A stretch of 30,458 bases of DNA. Origin: a virus (Duplodnaviria; Caudoviricetes). Each line of letters starts with the position of its first letter. Position 1 is the stretch's first letter. The stretch spans positions 1 to 30,458 of IMG/VR virus record IMGVR_UViG_3300026302_000100; one strand, 5' to 3'. Below are positions 6,556 through 21,940 of this stretch, in pieces. The position numbers and the translations under genes are program-made. The notes under the pieces are model-generated. The model was not told the DNA's origin and did not search any database. It saw nothing but the letters and a program-made list of their open reading frames with translations.

Positions 6556-6821
6556 TCAGTGGTTAAACAAAAACCCGCCGGGCCCAAAAGTGAACACGAC
6601 AGCGGAAAAGATGGCGGCGGCGATCACCGCCATGGCGATGCGTGCCCAGGTAGAGGGCTTGCGGATGTGGGGCCTTCGATGCCGAAGTCCGTGGGCTGGG
6701 GCATGGGGTCGCGTGCCGGGCGCCGGGCCGGTGCTGGCTCATGCAGGTGGGTGTCCACGGCGCGGCCGTGCTCATGCGTGACCAGGTGGGCGCTGGCTGC
6801 GGTGGGGGTGGTCTCAGGCAT
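6556..6821 (-). pseudogene. Small C-terminally anchored membrane protein gene, apparently frameshifted (or two tiny overlapping ORFs)
   Basis: ATG 6821 frame stops at 6624; the -1 frame from about 6670 gives PHIRKPSTWARIAMAVIAAAIFSAVVFTFGPGGFLFNH* ending 6556, just before the next gene's SD. Confidence 0.5.
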
Positions 6822-7887
6822 TGCGCACCTCCGGGAAGCCGTCGTGAGTCTTGCCATCCAGCAGGCGGCCGGCGGCTTTCTTGCCGACACGATCCATGAT
6901 CGCCATTGGGTACGGCGTCGCGTCACTCAACGGCACCGCGAGCGGCTTTGCTGTAGTGGCGGCGCAGTCCGCCATGGTTCGCCTGTTCGGCGCCCACTCG
7001 CCCCATTGCTTGAACAGGAATGCCACGCCAGCGGCGTCGCACTGGTTGCGCAGGCTTCGGGCCCAGTCCGGGTGCATCGGGCGTGCGCCGTGGCCGCTTT
7101 CGCCGCCAGCGATGACCCAGTGCACCATGGCGTCCGATCGCCCGCGCAAGGGACGGATAACGCCGTGGTCACCGGTAAGGGCGTCGATCTCGCACACGTC
7201 AGAGTGCACCTGGCGAAGGGTCACCAGCCCCAGCAGCGGCTCCATGCTCAGGAACCGCACCGCCGCCGGCGTGGCCAGCAGCTTGGGGATGTCGCGGTCT
7301 GCTTCCTTCTGGTTGACTACCGTGGCGCCAAGCCAGACGTTGGGCCACGGCCACGGCAGAGGGCGCCAGCCGCCCAGGCGCTCGGCTGCTACGGCGTCAG
7401 CGATCATTTCCTTCGCATTGCCGATCCGCTTCGTAAGCAGGAGCCAGTCCAGGTTCGGGGTCTGCGAAATCAAGGCGAACAGATCACGGCGCCATTGCAC
7501 CGGCACCTCGTTGTCGAACACGTCGGCCAGGCTGGCGCAGAAGACGCGGCGGCGTGCAGCCACCAGGTTGCCGCTGCAGTCGATGTTGGGACAGAGCAAG
7601 CCAGCCACGGCGCCATCGCCACGCCAGCCACACACCGGGCACGCGCAGAAGGGTTGCGCATTCCACCGCTCCGGCTGGCGCCAGTTCGCGGGTGACGTGC
7701 GCACGCGCGGTGCCCCGGCGCCCCACAGTTCGCGGCCCTGGCCACGATGCACGCGCACCGGAGTCTCATGCTCTGCATAGCAGTGATCGCAGCCACCGCC
7801 GCCCGTGTCTTCAATGGAGACCTTTGTGCAGCCCATCCAGGGGTTGAACGTGGCATCGCACCACTCGATACTGGTGTTCTCAGCCAT
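6814..7887 (-). CDS. Phage Gp37/Gp68 family (DUF5131) protein
   Basis: 'MAENTSIEWCDATFNPWMGCTKVS...GCDHCYAE', 'RRRVFCASLADVFD', 'LLLTKR', 'RFLSMEPLLG', 'WVIAGGESG', 'FKQWGEW'. Confidence 0.92.
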   Translation of the reverse strand: MAENTSIEWCDATFNPWMGCTKVSIEDTGGGGCDHCYAEHETPVRVHRGQGRELWGAGAPRVRTSPANWRQPERWNAQPFCACPVCGWRGDGAVAGLLCPNIDCSGNLVAARRRVFCASLADVFDNEVPVQWRRDLFALISQTPNLDWLLLTKRIGNAKEMIADAVAAERLGGWRPLPWPWPNVWLGATVVNQKEADRDIPKLLATPAAVRFLSMEPLLGLVTLRQVHSDVCEIDALTGDHGVIRPLRGRSDAMVHWVIAGGESGHGARPMHPDWARSLRNQCDAAGVAFLFKQWGEWAPNRRTMADCAATTAKPLAVPLSDATPYPMAIMDRVGKKAAGRLLDGKTHDGFPEVRNA

Positions 7888-8023
7888 TCGCACACCTCAC
7901 GATCAGCAGCAGAAGGCAAAGCGCCAGCCAGCCCAGCAGGGCCCAGGTCAGAGGCTCCCGCTGCCCGCGGCCCTGGTCGGTGCGGCGGCTGATGCTGTCC
8001 AGCCATTGGCGAAAGCGGTCCAT
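7880..8023 (-). CDS. Small membrane protein (47 aa)
   Basis: TGATG coupling to upstream gene; C-terminal TM helix WALLGWLALCLLLLIV. Confidence 0.6.
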   Translation of the reverse strand: MDRFRQWLDSISRRTDQGRGQREPLTWALLGWLALCLLLLIVRCANG

Positions 8024-13387: not shown

Positions 13388-13595
13388 GCTGGTCCGTGTC
13401 GGCTGGATCGAGATCAACGAAGACGGCCTCTACGAAGCCACCGAGGCCGGCCAAAAGCACAACAGCGAGCCCAGCACACCGCCGCGCACTTTCTGCAATG
13501 CGACCACCAAGGGCACCTACACGGGCCCCGCCTGGACCCTGCGCGCGGGATCTGATCGGGCTTCTTCGCTTCCTTCGCGGGGGACGGGATGCTGA
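13263..13595 (+). CDS. Winged-helix DNA-binding protein
   Basis: 'HLNELVRVGWIE...LYEATEAG' wHTH pattern; C-terminal 'RAGSDRASSLPSRG'. Confidence 0.7.
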   Translation: MITTRHRTMLRAICGRPRTAREFTNAQHDALSPNACASHLNELVRVGWIEINEDGLYEATEAGQKHNSEPSTPPRTFCNATTKGTYTGPAWTLRAGSDRASSLPSRGTGC

Positions 13596-15799
13596 GCGAT
13601 TACGACGCATTCGTGGCCCGCAAGCGCCGCGCAGAAGTTGCCACGGGCCACAAGCCCGGCGACCTGAACGAGCATCTATTTGACTTCCAGCATGCGATTG
13701 TTGAATGGGCTATCCGGCGTGGCCGCGCTGCGATCTTTGCGGACACCGGCCTTGGCAAGACCCTGATGCAGCTTTCGTGGGCTGACGAAGTGGCCGCGAA
13801 CACGGGCGGTACTGTGCTGGTGTTGGCACCGCTGGCCGTGTCTGAACAGACCATTGAGCAGGGGCGCACGTTTGGCATTGAGGTTCACCGTGTCCCCCAA
13901 GGCGGCACGCCCACCGGCCCCGGCGTGTGGATTACCAACTATGAGCGCATGGACGCCATTGACTTCACCGAGCTGCATGGGCTGGTGCTGGACGAATCAT
14001 CCATCCTGAAAGCGCATGACGGCAAGACCCGCCAGCGCATCATTGATGCAGCGCAGGGTGTGCCGTATCGCCTGTCCTGCACGGCCACGCCATCCCCCAA
14101 CGACTTCGAGGAATTGGGCAACCAGTGCGAGTTCCTGGGCGTGATGAGCCGCACGGAAATGCTGGCGACTTACTTTGTGAACGACACGGGCGACACCGGC
14201 ACATGGCGACTCAAGGGATGGGGCGCATCCAAGTTTTGGGAGTGGATGGGCACATGGGCCGTGGTGCTGCGCAACCCGCAAGACCTGGGTTTTAACGGTG
14301 CCCGCTATGAACTTCCCCCGCTGACGTATCACGAGCATGTGGTGGAAACCGAGCAGATTGGTGATGAGTTGTTTGCACGACCTGCCATGGGTCTTGCCGA
14401 GCGCCGCAAGGCCCAGCGCGACAGCGTAGAAGCCCGCTGCAAGGCATTGGCCGATGTGGTCAACGCAGAGCCCGGTGAGCCGTGGCTGATCTGGTGTCAC
14501 CTGAACGACGAGGCCGAGCGCATCACGCAACTGATACCCGGCGCTGTGAACGTGCAGGGTTCGGACTCACCGGATAGCAAGTCAAAGAACCTGCTGGGCT
14601 TTGCCCACGGCGAAATCCGCGTGCTGGTCAGCAAACCCAAGATCGCCGGGTTTGGCATGAACTGGCAGCACTGCGCACGCATGGCTTTTGTGGGGCTGGA
14701 TGACTCATTCGAGAAGTTCTACCAGGCCGTGCGCCGCTGCTATCGCTTCGGCCAAAAGCGCGAGGTTCAGGTGCATCTGTTCACCGCAGAAAACGAGGGC
14801 CAGATTTTGGCCAACCTCAAGCGCAAAGAAGTGCAGCACCACGACATGAGCGCAAACATGATCGAACACATGAAGGAAATCATGAACCACGAACTCACCG
14901 GACAGACCAACGTAGTGGACGACTACCGCGAAGACACGCACGAGGGCGACGGCTACACCATCCACCTGGGCGACTGCGTGAAGTGGGCGCGGCGAATGGC
15001 TGACAACAGCATTGATTACAGCGTGTTTTCCCCGCCGTTTGCTGACTTGTTTGTGTACAGCAACAGCGACCACGACATGGGCAACTGCAAGGACGATGCC
15101 GAGTTTGTCGCGCAGTTGAAATTCCTGATTACCGAGCTGTTCCGCGTCATCAAGCCGGGCCGCAACGTGTCATTCCACTGCATGAACCTGCCCACCACCA
15201 AGATGCGCCAAGGCTTCATTGGCCTACGTGATTTCCGGGGCGCACTCATCAAGGCGTTTGAGGAAGCCGGGTTTATATATCACTCCGAAGTGTGCATATG
15301 GAAAGACCCGGTGGTGTCAATGCAGCGCACCAAGGCGCTGGGCCTGCTGCACAAGACTATCCGCGAGAACAGCACCATGAGCCGCATGGGGCTGCCTGAC
15401 TACGTGGTGACGATGCGCAAGCCCGGCGACTGCGAAATCCGCGTAACCCATGGCGACGACCTGCCCGTTTTGATGTGGCAGAAGTACGCAAGCCCTATCT
15501 GGACGGACATTAACCAGGGCCGCACGCTGAACAAGCTGCCGGCGCGGGACGAGAACGACGAAAAGCACATGTGCCCGCTGCAGCTCGACGTGATTGAGCG
15601 GTGCATTCACCTTTGGACAAACAAGGGTGATCTGGTTTTCTCGCCGTTCGCTGGCATCGGCTCCGAGGGCTATTGCGCCGTGAAGATGGGCCGCAGGTTT
15701 GTTGGCACCGAACTCAAGCCGCAGTACTACGAGCTGGCATGCCTGAACGTCGAGGACGCGCTGAAAGAGCAGGCGGGGCTGTTTGCGGAGGCCGCATGA
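13589..15799 (+). CDS. SF2 (SNF2-like) helicase fused to an N4/N6 DNA methyltransferase
   Basis: Walker A ADTGLGKT, DESS, TAT, QAVRRCYRFGQ; then FSPPF catalytic motif and PFAGIGS SAM-binding motif (beta order). Confidence 0.9.
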   Translation: MLSDYDAFVARKRRAEVATGHKPGDLNEHLFDFQHAIVEWAIRRGRAAIFADTGLGKTLMQLSWADEVAANTGGTVLVLAPLAVSEQTIEQGRTFGIEVHRVPQGGTPTGPGVWITNYERMDAIDFTELHGLVLDESSILKAHDGKTRQRIIDAAQGVPYRLSCTATPSPNDFEELGNQCEFLGVMSRTEMLATYFVNDTGDTGTWRLKGWGASKFWEWMGTWAVVLRNPQDLGFNGARYELPPLTYHEHVVETEQIGDELFARPAMGLAERRKAQRDSVEARCKALADVVNAEPGEPWLIWCHLNDEAERITQLIPGAVNVQGSDSPDSKSKNLLGFAHGEIRVLVSKPKIAGFGMNWQHCARMAFVGLDDSFEKFYQAVRRCYRFGQKREVQVHLFTAENEGQILANLKRKEVQHHDMSANMIEHMKEIMNHELTGQTNVVDDYREDTHEGDGYTIHLGDCVKWARRMADNSIDYSVFSPPFADLFVYSNSDHDMGNCKDDAEFVAQLKFLITELFRVIKPGRNVSFHCMNLPTTKMRQGFIGLRDFRGALIKAFEEAGFIYHSEVCIWKDPVVSMQRTKALGLLHKTIRENSTMSRMGLPDYVVTMRKPGDCEIRVTHGDDLPVLMWQKYASPIWTDINQGRTLNKLPARDENDEKHMCPLQLDVIERCIHLWTNKGDLVFSPFAGIGSEGYCAVKMGRRFVGTELKPQYYELACLNVEDALKEQAGLFAEAA

Positions 15800-18399: not shown

Positions 18400-18821
18400 C
18401 CATCCACTTCCACATCCCCGGCCAGCCCGTGGGCAAAGGGCGCGCCCGCATCGGCAAGGTGGGCGCACATGCCCGCATTTTCACGCCGGCCAAAACCGTC
18501 AGCTACGAAAGCACTGTTGCCCTGTTTGCCGCCCAGGCGATGGCAGGCCGCCCGCTGCTGACCGGGCCGGTGAACCTGCAGATGCGCGTGGACTTCGCTA
18601 TCCCGGCGAGCTGGTCAATGAGAAAGCAGCGCGCGGCAGAGGCTGGGCTGATCTTGCCTGCCGTGAAGCCCGATGCTGACAACGTGGCCAAGGCCATCTG
18701 CGATGCCATCAACGGCGTGGTGTGGAAAGACGACGTTCAGGTGGTGGACCTGACGGTAAAGAAGCGGTATTCGGTGGTTCCGGGGGTGGCTGTGCGGATT
18801 GATGAACTGGACGCCCAATGA
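18396..18821 (+). CDS. rusA: RusA-family Holliday junction resolvase
   Basis: 'PGQPVGKGRAR', 'KPDADNVAKAICDAINGVVWKDDVQV'. Confidence 0.93.
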   Translation: MTIHFHIPGQPVGKGRARIGKVGAHARIFTPAKTVSYESTVALFAAQAMAGRPLLTGPVNLQMRVDFAIPASWSMRKQRAAEAGLILPAVKPDADNVAKAICDAINGVVWKDDVQVVDLTVKKRYSVVPGVAVRIDELDAQ

Positions 18822-19069
18822 CCCACTGCACCAACTGCGGCCGCCGCATGAAAGCCGCCAGCCCCACCGGCCTAGGCCCTGTGTGCGCCCGCAAGGCCAA
18901 GGCTGTACCCGTCCCTGACCAAGACGCGGGGCTGTTTGGCTACGACATCGAGCGTGCAGTTTTGGCCGCGCAGCAACGGATCAGGGTTCACATCGCCGTT
19001 ATGGCTGAAGACGCCCACCAGGCTGTTCGCCGTGGGTTCAGGGCTGCGCGGGAAAGGCTGCTGTCGTGA
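18818..19069 (+). CDS. Small Zn-finger phage protein
   Basis: CTNCGRRM...GLGPVCAR. Confidence 0.7.
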   Translation: MTHCTNCGRRMKAASPTGLGPVCARKAKAVPVPDQDAGLFGYDIERAVLAAQQRIRVHIAVMAEDAHQAVRRGFRAARERLLS

Positions 19070-20196
19070 CCGCGTACTACAACGAGTTCGACAAAAAGGC
19101 CGCTGCATGGCTGCGCGAGCTGATTGCTGATGGCCACATCCCGCCCGGCGACGTTGACGAAAGGAGCATCACCGATGTACGAGCAGATGAGCTTGCTGGA
19201 TACACCCAGCTTCACTTTTTCGCCGGCATTGGCGGATGGCCCCTTGCTGCCCGCATTGCCGGATGGCCAGATGACCGCGAAATCGTCACCGGGTCGTGCC
19301 CGTGTCAGCCGTTCTCTGTCGCGGGCAAAGGCGCCGGAACTGCTGATGCGCGGCACCTATGGCCCGACTTTTTCCGAATCATCCGTGCCCGCCGGCCCGC
19401 TGTCGTCATGGGAGAGCAGGTTGCGGCAGCGGTTGGCAAAGGTTGGTTCCTCGGAGTGCGATCTGACCTGGAAGGTATCGGGTACGACTGCCGAGGGGTT
19501 GTTATCCCGGCTTGTGCCGTCAACGCCCCGCACCGTAGAGATCGACTCTGGTTTGCTGCTGGAAGCCGACTACTGGAGGACGCCACAGGCGGCAGTCACG
19601 GAGCCGCGCTCCACGGTGGTGAAGTTCAGCGGGCGCTCGCCGTCCGATCCGCAAGTCGGCTTGCCGGACCAGGTAATGGCGACTGCCGCGTACTGGAGCA
19701 CACCGAGAGCATCGGACGGGGAGAAGGGCGGGCCGAACCAGGCATTCGGAGCGGGCGGGCAACCATTGCCGGCGCAGGCCTTTCACACGGCGATGTGGCC
19801 CCGCCCAACACTACCGAGCGGCGGCCAGACATGGCCCGAAGGGACCACGCTGGAGGGCATGAGGCCGGACGGGAAGAAATCTCAGGTCACGCTGAACAAC
19901 GTGGTAACGGGCTTGTGGCCGACGCCATTGGTGGGCAGCACCAACCCTGCAGCACACAACCAGATCAGCGGTCAGTGGCGCGCTGCGATGGAAAAGGCGA
20001 TGCCTGGGCCGGCGCAAAGTGGCTTGTCGGCCACGACGGGAAAGCGCGGCGTGTTGAACCCAGCATTCCCTTGCTGGTTGATGGGATACCCCATCGTGTG
20101 GGTCTTTTGCGGGGCTTCGGCAATGCAATCGCTCCCCAGATCGCGGCGGAAATGATGGCCGCCTGGATGGAGGAATTTCCCGAGGTGGCCGCATGA
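19066..20196 (+). CDS. DNA cytosine-C5 methyltransferase, catalytic (alpha) polypeptide
   Basis: Motif I FFAGIGG, IV GSCPCQPFS, VI GEQV, VIII HRRDRLWF, X LRGFGNAI; no motif IX in this frame. Confidence 0.9.
   Translation: MTAYYNEFDKKAAAWLRELIADGHIPPGDVDERSITDVRADELAGYTQLHFFAGIGGWPLAARIAGWPDDREIVTGSCPCQPFSVAGKGAGTADARHLWPDFFRIIRARRPAVVMGEQVAAAVGKGWFLGVRSDLEGIGYDCRGVVIPACAVNAPHRRDRLWFAAGSRLLEDATGGSHGAALHGGEVQRALAVRSASRLAGPGNGDCRVLEHTESIGRGEGRAEPGIRSGRATIAGAGLSHGDVAPPNTTERRPDMARRDHAGGHEAGREEISGHAEQRGNGLVADAIGGQHQPCSTQPDQRSVARCDGKGDAWAGAKWLVGHDGKARRVEPSIPLLVDGIPHRVGLLRGFGNAIAPQIAAEMMAAWMEEFPEVAA
19175..20155 (+). CDS. Nested +1-frame ORF: putative methyltransferase beta polypeptide with four W-x-T/R-P modules and motif IX
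   Basis: AAGGAG (19161-19166) 8 nt before ATG 19175; 326 codons open; YWRTP, YWSTP, MWPRP, LWPTP modules; LNPAFPCWLMGYPIVW. Confidence 0.75.
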   Translation: MYEQMSLLDTPSFTFSPALADGPLLPALPDGQMTAKSSPGRARVSRSLSRAKAPELLMRGTYGPTFSESSVPAGPLSSWESRLRQRLAKVGSSECDLTWKVSGTTAEGLLSRLVPSTPRTVEIDSGLLLEADYWRTPQAAVTEPRSTVVKFSGRSPSDPQVGLPDQVMATAAYWSTPRASDGEKGGPNQAFGAGGQPLPAQAFHTAMWPRPTLPSGGQTWPEGTTLEGMRPDGKKSQVTLNNVVTGLWPTPLVGSTNPAAHNQISGQWRAAMEKAMPGPAQSGLSATTGKRGVLNPAFPCWLMGYPIVWVFCGASAMQSLPRSRRK

Positions 20197-20670: not shown

Positions 20671-20937
20671 ATGAGCATCACCACAAACGGCCCCGTCGCC
20701 GCAGACCCTGACCGTGAACTGACCTTTGGCGAAAAGGCTGTCGGTCTGACGTTCAACCCGTCGCAAGACCCCGCTGTGTATTCCTGCAAATCGGGCTTTG
20801 CCCACGTCATCGACCAGATGAACGACCTGCGCAACAGCACCGACAACACCGAAGTCAAGCGCATGGCGTCCGTCGCCATCACCGAGGCGCAGACGGCGCA
20901 GATGTGGGCGGTCAAGGCCATCACCTGGCGCGGCTGA
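20671..20937 (+). CDS. Acb2/Tad1-like helical-hairpin protein (candidate nucleotide-signal sponge)
   Basis: GAGGA SD, ATG 20671; 'TFGEKAVGLTFNPS...KRMASVAITEAQTAQMWAVKAITW'. Confidence 0.6.
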   Translation: MSITTNGPVAADPDRELTFGEKAVGLTFNPSQDPAVYSCKSGFAHVIDQMNDLRNSTDNTEVKRMASVAITEAQTAQMWAVKAITWRG

Positions 20938-21292: not shown

Positions 21293-21940
21293 ATGAAGAA
21301 ACTGCGATTCGCCTTTGAGCGAGAACACAAGGGATGGCTGCTGCGCATGTGGTGGAACTGGGCGGAAGTCGCCTACCTGCTGCTGGCGCTGCGCGGACTG
21401 AAGGCGGAGATTGAGTTTCCATCCGACTGGCACGAACACCGGCAAGGATGGGTGCGGCTGGGCTTTGGCCTGTTCACGCTGGCCTTTGCTTTCCCGTGGC
21501 CGTGGGTTGTGCCAGACGACTACCAATGCTCCGGGCCGCGCTTCGGGTTTTGCTTCTTTCAAGACGGCCTGCACCTGAGCTGGGGCAAGTCGCACGGCAA
21601 GCGCGACGACCCATTCAAGATCATTCAGATGCCGTGGGGCTGGCGTCATCGCAAGCATGAGGTTCTGACCGAGCCTGAGCAGTTCCCATACACCTATCGG
21701 CTCAGGTCCGGCGAGGTTCAGGAGCGCATCGCCACGGTGAAAGAAGAACGGCGGCTATGGACGCGCCCGTGGTTGCCGCACAAGCGGGAAAGCCACTACA
21801 TCGACATAAGCTTTGACAAGGAAGTCGGGGAACGCAGCGGCTCGTGGAAGGGTGGCGTGATGGGCTGCAGCTACGACATGCTGCCCGCCGAGAACCCACT
21901 GATGACATTGCGCCGCATGGAACGGGAACGGAATCTCTGA
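21293..21940 (+). CDS. Trp-rich phage hypothetical protein
   Basis: AAGGA SD; 215 aa; 'F..EVGERSGSWKGG..G' C-terminal motif. Confidence 0.8.
   Translation: MKKLRFAFEREHKGWLLRMWWNWAEVAYLLLALRGLKAEIEFPSDWHEHRQGWVRLGFGLFTLAFAFPWPWVVPDDYQCSGPRFGFCFFQDGLHLSWGKSHGKRDDPFKIIQMPWGWRHRKHEVLTEPEQFPYTYRLRSGEVQERIATVKEERRLWTRPWLPHKRESHYIDISFDKEVGERSGSWKGGVMGCSYDMLPAENPLMTLRRMERERNL

Follow-up and report, generated by a model that had tools for sequence, protein, structure and literature searches.

A phage C5 DNA methyltransferase locus with a nested second frame of exchangeable modules

In this study, we examined a 1.1-kb locus in a window of 30,458 nucleotides (the whole stretch of virus DNA that was analysed) and found two overlapping, conserved reading frames, whose products, alpha and beta, very probably form one heterodimeric C5 methylase. 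The beta chain lies in the +1 frame inside alpha and carries four modules that relatives exchange as cassettes. We consider it reasonably probable that these modules are alternative TRDs of a multispecific enzyme, a reading we infer without a sequence match to known TRDs. On balance, we lean towards a wider picture, in which this is a very large phage family whose hidden chain serves as a rack of specificity modules of about 36 residues, more than 200 module families recombining at W-x-T-P, alpha buffering the swaps and dual coding allowing combinatorial retargeting of methylation, in a motif order (II-III-I-IV) outside the permutations of PMC5944983. The coordinates, sizes and +1 relation of the two chains given in an initial annotation of this DNA proved correct base for base (Table 1).

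Table 1. Features of the locus, in window positions
Feature	Position	Strand	Remarks
Alpha chain, 376 aa	19066..20196	+	catalytic body of C5 DNA methyltransferase; PF00145 E 1.2e-17; phrog_363 E 3e-74
Motifs II-III ahead of motif I (alpha 1-44)	19066..19197	+	structure alignment, TIGR00675, profile matches
Shine-Dalgarno AAGGAG for beta	19161..19166	+	8 nt before ATG; codon bias at alpha Arg33 and Asp37
Beta chain, 326 aa	19175..20155	+	+1 frame inside alpha
Motif I (HFFAGIGG plus helix), alpha 48-65	19207..19260	+	
Alpha motifs IV (P79-C80-Q81) to VIII (R158, R160), motif VI E117-Q-V	19300..19545	+	invariant, 98 aligned homologues
Beta conserved core (73-124), helix and hairpin	19391..19546	+	overlaps alpha motifs VI-VIII; alpha fourfold change 0.17
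Alpha filler read off module DNA	19573..19995	+	predicted disordered, weakly constrained, stop-free
Module 1 (WRTP...)	19574..19693	+	same family in locus L148
Module 2 (WSTP...)	19694..19795	+	family of 13; sole module confidently docked in predicted complex
Module 3 (WPRP...)	19796..19915	+	family of 7
Module 4 (WPTP...)	19916..20020	+	same family in locus L018; 3' end approximate
Motif IX on beta (294-309), LNPAFPCWLMGYPIVW	20054..20101	+	alpha fourfold change 0.084; P296, L302, G304 invariant
Alpha motif X core (G352-N-A)	20119..20127	+	98 aligned homologues

The alpha chain and its surroundings

Alpha contains motifs I, IV, VI (as EQV), VIII and X and lacks motif IX, as had been described, and motif I, the Pro-Cys of IV, the Glu of VI, the RxR of VIII and motif X were invariant or nearly so in 98 homologues. 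Its match to PF00145 reached 64.8 bits (cut-off 22), and its structural model aligned with M.HhaI over 171 residues (Z 17.1, rmsd 2.3 A), HaeIII and HhaI being the best Foldseek matches. The core of the model is confident and residues 220-309 are disordered (pLDDT < 50), which, together with amino-acid differences of 0.36 in alpha and 0.11 in beta over 98 module pairs picked on DNA identity only, bears out the earlier view of the alpha variable region as filler.

The non-canonical motif order was overlooked in the initial annotation. Alpha reads II-III-I-IV-V-VI-VII-VIII-filler-X, so that the usual (though not universal) single-chain order I-X is absent here, with motif IX on the nested chain. 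Residue 1 of the alpha model aligns with HhaI residue 34, the TIGR00675 match begins at alpha 4 (profile position 25), alpha 2-44 matches motif II of a canonical enzyme by profile (E 0.001) and alpha 45-69 matches motif I in 11 of 12 canonical enzymes. The order II-III-I-IV was found in 128 of 143 loci. Since the canonical-order loci listed (11/11) also carry a nested modular beta, rearranged order and nesting are separable. According to the accessible text of PMC5944983, whose search required motif X before I, the natural C5 permutations listed occur only in the variable region.

The window belongs to a prophage in a 4.36-Mb genome and has the gene order RecE-like, SNF2/N6-N4 methylase fusion, replication protein, DnaB, RusA, methylase, NinB-like, Acb2/Tad1-like, Acb3, terminase and portal. 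The GTG start of alpha overlaps the stop of an upstream ORF (18818-19069). No restriction endonuclease gene was found among the methylase neighbours, which are RusA, an 83-aa ORF that matched nothing and an ORF weakly similar to NinB; the anti-defence genes, Acb2/Tad1-like and Acb3, sit 0.5-1.7 kb downstream. An Acb2/Tad1-hairpin protein (87 aa, PF24729, window 20674-20937) and Acb3 (PF25187, window 21293-21940) make up this anti-CBASS/Thoeris-type cluster directly 3' of the methylase. The same prophage encodes a second methylase, an SNF2-type helicase fused to an N6/N4 DNA methylase (736 aa, window 13589-15799), and a DUF5131 protein (window 6814-7893, minus strand), which at 359 aa against a 243-position profile must hold a long insertion and also matches PADLOC PDC-M41B and PDC-M30B. 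In the host genome, two further C5 methylase-like ORFs are present among the G000:C16 loci L230, L232 and L233, one of 471 aa and the other a frame of 1202 codons whose two matched parts are separated by a large insert. Part of the stretch is contained in 19 sequencing runs and half of it in none; the four runs inspected are contigs from one study, probably DNA, and uninformative on transcription.

Exchangeable modules and their possible role

The initial annotation had described four repeats in beta, beginning YWRTP, YWSTP, MWPRP and LWPTP and followed by motif IX (LNPAFPCWLMGYPIVW), with Trp codons at 19574, 19694, 19796 and 19916 (spacings 120, 102 and 120). The letters agree with this in full, including the four W-x-[T/R]-P starts, but past the first four residues the units are only 7-23% identical and are therefore distinct cassettes rather than repeats, arranged in tandem immediately ahead of motif IX. 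That the spacings are multiples of 3 had been pointed out; we do not count this as evidence, as any codons within one ORF are spaced in that way. The real frame evidence is that homologues change their module number while both frames remain open.

Our module census covered 228 loci, including those found through beta, and held 185 alpha/beta pairs, 173 of them unique and 169 parsed. Betas carry 1-7 modules with a median length of 36 aa; 467 modules fell into 208 single-linkage families (142 singletons), and 161 betas showed 151 different module arrays. Among families with at least three members, 31 of 34 were found at more than one position. Every beta inspected retains at least one module, and eight candidates for module-less betas were degenerate starts or parsing artefacts. 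The expectation that module number would vary with the frames open, and that cassettes could be gained, lost and shuffled without breaking either frame, is thus borne out by the range of module numbers and by the swapped arrays.

Comparison of the window with loci L001 and L002 illustrates such exchange. Module 3 is common to all three, module 2 of the window equals that of L002 in full and that of L001 in its first part only, and modules 1 and 4 differ from both, the swaps lying at or near module borders. The module at L001:2006-2080 is a chimera, its first 13 residues being those of window module 2 and the remainder different, so exchange also occurs inside a module. In wastewater contigs from one study, the joints fall at module borders, with module 4 replaced and two known inserts, 93 and 114 bases long, replacing 96 and 108.

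What the modules do is suggested first by where they are. According to the accessible part of PMC5944983, the TRD of C5 enzymes sits directly before motif IX, which is the module position here. This position, an alpha chain without a constrained variable region and a turnover like that of specificity exchange together point to the modules as TRDs. A module profile searched against solved structures returned no methyltransferase and three unrelated chains (E 0.55-1.4), and a whole-beta profile likewise gave no methyltransferase match among solved structures; against the SPbeta and phi3T enzymes, the module profile reached E 0.5-1.6, which is not significant, and the best matches of a module PSSM scored no higher than shuffles. 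TRDs diverge quickly, so missing similarity need not rule out TRD identity, and the W-x-T-P start may be comparable to the Thr-Leu motif of TRDs.

The modules might instead be accessory loops that grip DNA or bind a host protein, on a heterodimeric C5 methyltransferase with a single specificity, either fixed or relaxed. Everything that supports the heterodimer fits this equally well. The modules gave no match to known TRDs, they are slightly basic, with a mean net charge of +1.0 and 67% of them positive, and their fold is predicted with low confidence. We nevertheless consider it unlikely, because whole modules are conserved across distant cores and yet the array differs in 18/18 pairs with a core DNA identity of at least 0.80, because the modules occupy the TRD position next to an alpha that has no constrained variable region to supply specificity, and because no family is repeated within one beta (0/161, compared to a shuffled mean of 11.3 and a minimum of 2 in 5,000 shuffles ignoring relatedness). 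The missing duplicates could also reflect deletion between direct repeats.

The nested chain and its partner

Searches with alpha only gave 174 loci, or 175 with the window, examined without de-duplication; 32 were dropped (motif IV or X unparsed, or a contig end), alpha was broken in 7, and 136 intact loci remained. Across the stretch from motif IV to motif X, 130 of these alpha-selected intact loci have an open +1 frame and none an open +2 frame, and the six with an interrupted +1 span still encode a full beta, beginning later or ending earlier. A loose motif IX pattern matches 127/136, the remaining nine having a variant or its beginning. Alpha in turn runs without stops through the filler in 136/143 loci, compared to 910 of 10,000 trials in which recoded window modules left alpha open. 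Both frames therefore stay open in homologues, as the initial annotation had anticipated, and the frequent +1 stops it had named as counter-evidence were not seen. The nested frame is conserved across contigs that range from Proteobacteria to Bacteroidota and Bacillota. Alpha matches 518 and beta 126 of 50,697 phage records, and pattern scans suggest thousands more members, although one pattern also picks up ordinary C5 enzymes.

A few loci depart from this layout. In L075 and L113, the stops in alpha are confined to the filler and beta is intact, so that these loci are pseudogenes or else consist of three pieces, with motif X produced on its own. In L158, L160, L166, L201, L227 and L049, the alpha and beta tails are exchanged by frameshifts within or close to the variable region, which are likely to represent pseudogenes or assembly errors. 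In L198 and L205, an HNH-endonuclease-like ORF is inserted 3' of the beta stop in the +1 frame with alpha still open, resembling the out-of-frame HNH reported in the accessible part of PMC11855218.

A switch of constraint from the alpha to the beta frame had been suggested as a check and was found over the beta core, the modules and motif IX. In 39 independent pairs picked on alpha-core DNA identity, the difference at alpha fourfold sites was 0.47 before the beta start, 0.40 over beta 5-34, 0.34 over beta 35-72, 0.17 over beta 73-124 and 0.084 over motif IX, and it was 0.39-0.63 near and beyond the beta end. In the 98 module pairs, changes at beta codon positions 1/2/3 were 0.10/0.06/0.32. The Shine-Dalgarno sequence claimed for beta is present as described, and an ATG with an SD-like word occurs in 99/136 loci, the chosen beta ATG being at the offset of the window in 52/132. 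The alpha Arg33 codon is AGG or CGG in 63/97 (background 0.29), which is toward the SD, and the Asp37 codon is GAT rather than GAC at 65 : 16 (background 1121 : 1882), which is toward the ATG. These codon choices show that the beta start signal is favoured by selection, and we infer that beta is translated.

Beta alone folds poorly (pLDDT 59.8, pTM 0.26), and a fold search with this low-confidence model against viral predictions returned only family members or noise. When alpha and beta were modelled together, as had been proposed, the predicted complex of alpha with beta 45-326 passed with an ipSAE of 0.91, compared to 0.01 for the best of three controls; the mark applied is reached by 116/157 solved complexes and 2/215 mismatched pairs. 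Complex runs share at least 51% of contacts, with a partner pLDDT of at least 58. Split-enzyme halves tend to pass co-folding by their likeness to solved monomers such as M.HhaI; the predicted complex supports alpha-beta binding and is not proof of it. Its confident interface includes the beta core, motif IX and module 2 only, with modules 1, 3 and 4 absent, consistent with the modules docking one by one, and the beta core is predicted to pack on the alpha C-terminal helix and strand 146-148.

This interface bears on whether beta could be a protein of its own, such as a regulator, inhibitor or counter-defence factor, with alpha working alone or inactive as a DNA methylase. Homology of the beta core to the beta of EcoHK31I-type enzymes could not be detected (in a search of 9 sequences, the core reached E 0.34 and a 9-residue motif IX match E 0.006), and the rearranged motif order and EQV motif of alpha are unusual. 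However, beta has exactly the motif IX that alpha is missing, and has it under strong selection, the predicted interface covers motif IX, and the catalytic residues of alpha are invariant, making a separate protein improbable. Still less credit is due to a single polypeptide made by programmed frameshifting from alpha into +1 after motif VIII and back before motif X. It would restore a canonical VIII-TRD-IX-X in one chain, but it needs two opposite shifts, and we rejected it because beta 73-124 is selected while sharing DNA with alpha motifs VI-VIII and so cannot be in the same chain, because the SD and ATG of beta are favoured, and because the alpha filler is kept free of stops. That the +1 frame is merely the open shadow of a GC-rich gene has a negligible probability and is refuted, since, for all that GC-rich DNA has fewer stops and beta residues 5-34 are little constrained (0.40 vs 0.47), the frame stayed open across 326 codons in just 29/20,000 synonymous recodings and 19/20,000 codon shuffles of alpha, nine other window genes have 4-32 stops each in +1, the frame is conserved across phyla, and both the codon-position signal in beta and the drop at fourfold sites speak for selection. 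The third frame over the locus holds 14 stops. The open +1 frame is not due to chance.

Taking alpha and beta as one heterodimeric methylase with TRD-like modules, the two conserved overlapping frames of this prophage locus would yield a single C5 methyltransferase that protects phage DNA from several host restriction enzymes. As its sequence and fold indicate, alpha would contribute the SAM site, the catalytic Cys80 and motifs VI, VIII and X. Beta, presumably initiated at its own Shine-Dalgarno sequence and ATG, on which selection is seen, would pack its core and motif IX on alpha and rebuild the small domain, as the complex predicts. One module at a time may then sit beside the active site, its W-x-T-P anchoring a variable DNA-reading loop. 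The module swaps that we observe might arise through recombination at the conserved W-x-T-P codons, and any change by a multiple of 3 nt would keep both frames, alpha taking it up as a disordered loop. By analogy with the SPbeta MTase, the changing set of methylated motifs would block cytosine-sensitive restriction. An anti-restriction role is likely, given the orphan status of the gene, its anti-defence neighbours and the precedent of the SPbeta MTase, to which such a role is ascribed in the accessible text of PMC8270828. In the genus Kagunavirus, at least K1ind2, K1ind3 and 536P11 carry the gene, and isolates of this genus, whether gene carriers or not, are reported in the accessible part of PMC11990801 to be highly sensitive to the RM systems tested; this sensitivity shows no broad protection.

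The claim that standard annotation would miss beta holds in part. Beta matches phrog_1008 (E 7.6e-22), GenBank GU196280 (K1ind2, ORF28) annotates the nested ORF as 'putative Mte8-like protein' and the ESM Atlas includes the exact beta sequence, in clusters that are unnamed and mostly viral. On the other side, beta had no match in Pfam, NCBIfam or PADLOC, and alpha alone is given in the records of N15 (gp58) and RcAqua (gp22), which omit a nested beta with 2 modules in N15 and 3 in RcAqua. The entries for phrog_363 (alpha), phrog_1008 (beta), K1ind2, N15 and RcAqua are labels only, with no function or architecture described. The K1ind2 record (L066) annotates both frames, and that of Cy-LDV1 (L067) annotates only a piece of beta and omits alpha. 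We found no account of a nested modular beta in phages in a search of the openly accessible literature; it is absent from the accessible text of PMC11954522, PMC2836561, PMC8936443, PMC11990801, PMC12707154, PMC3404938, PMC11855218, PMC2884959, PMC9957025, PMC5944983 and PMC8270828.

If our interpretation is correct, many temperate and lytic phages (N15, Kagunaviruses, and Rhodobacter, Klebsiella and Xanthomonas phages) would carry an anti-restriction methylase that can be retargeted and whose specificity chain annotation usually omits. Alpha-only clones or knockouts, or codon-optimised versions, would then destroy beta and be misread. The modules would constitute a natural library of very small DNA-recognition units, with which C5 specificity could be decoded and methylases engineered. 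The locus also clearly illustrates how selection alternates between two frames of one gene, one frame tolerating the domain gain and loss that takes place in the other.

Comparison with known systems

M.EcoHK31I, an alpha/beta C5 methyltransferase with the target YGGCCR (accessible text of PMC2836561 and PMC3404938), had been proposed as the model for this locus. A plasmid DNA search with a canonical-order homologue did not find M.EcoHK31I, and a published primer located the E. coli locus L234 (NZ_CP024886), which matches its published primers and through which we made the comparison. The analogy holds for the nested two-frame layout, with beta wholly inside alpha in the +1 frame, and for the division of motifs, I-VIII and X being on alpha and IX on beta; the beta N-terminus is weakly constrained here and, in the part of the literature accessible, reported dispensable in M.EcoHK31I. 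It fails for the TRD, reported on alpha in M.EcoHK31I (PMC2836561, PMC3404938, in their accessible parts), whereas here the alpha variable region is predicted disordered and weakly constrained, and constraint and the putative TRDs are in beta. Alpha of L234 has the canonical motif order and alpha here II-III-I-IV. In L234, beta is 172 aa long, begins beyond motif IV and lacks W-x-T-P modules, whereas beta here starts before motif I and, family-wide, carries 1-7 of them. Finally, L234 adjoins a restriction endonuclease gene, while the gene here is a prophage orphan.

A second two-chain enzyme is M.AquI, whose two genes are not known to be nested. Its second chain bears the distal variable region and motif IX (accessible text of PMC3404938, which describes no modules), and so resembles beta in carrying motif IX; motif X is also on that small chain in M.AquI and on alpha here.

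Like SPbeta MtbP and the phi3T enzymes, the gene here is a phage-borne orphan C5 methyltransferase that has a tandem array of short variable units ahead of motif IX. The TRDs of Bacillus phage enzymes are about 40-50 aa long and share a Thr-Leu motif. As the initial annotation stated, multispecific Bacillus phage MTases use tandem TRDs (PMC8936443, accessible part). The SPbeta and phi3T enzymes are single polypeptides of canonical order with a closed +1 frame (18-41 stops) and without significant similarity to the modules here, in contrast to the two chains and rearranged alpha of our locus. The locus shares its layout with M.EcoHK31I but belongs neither to that system nor to the Bacillus phage enzymes; in specificity, judged by analogy, it probably resembles the latter.
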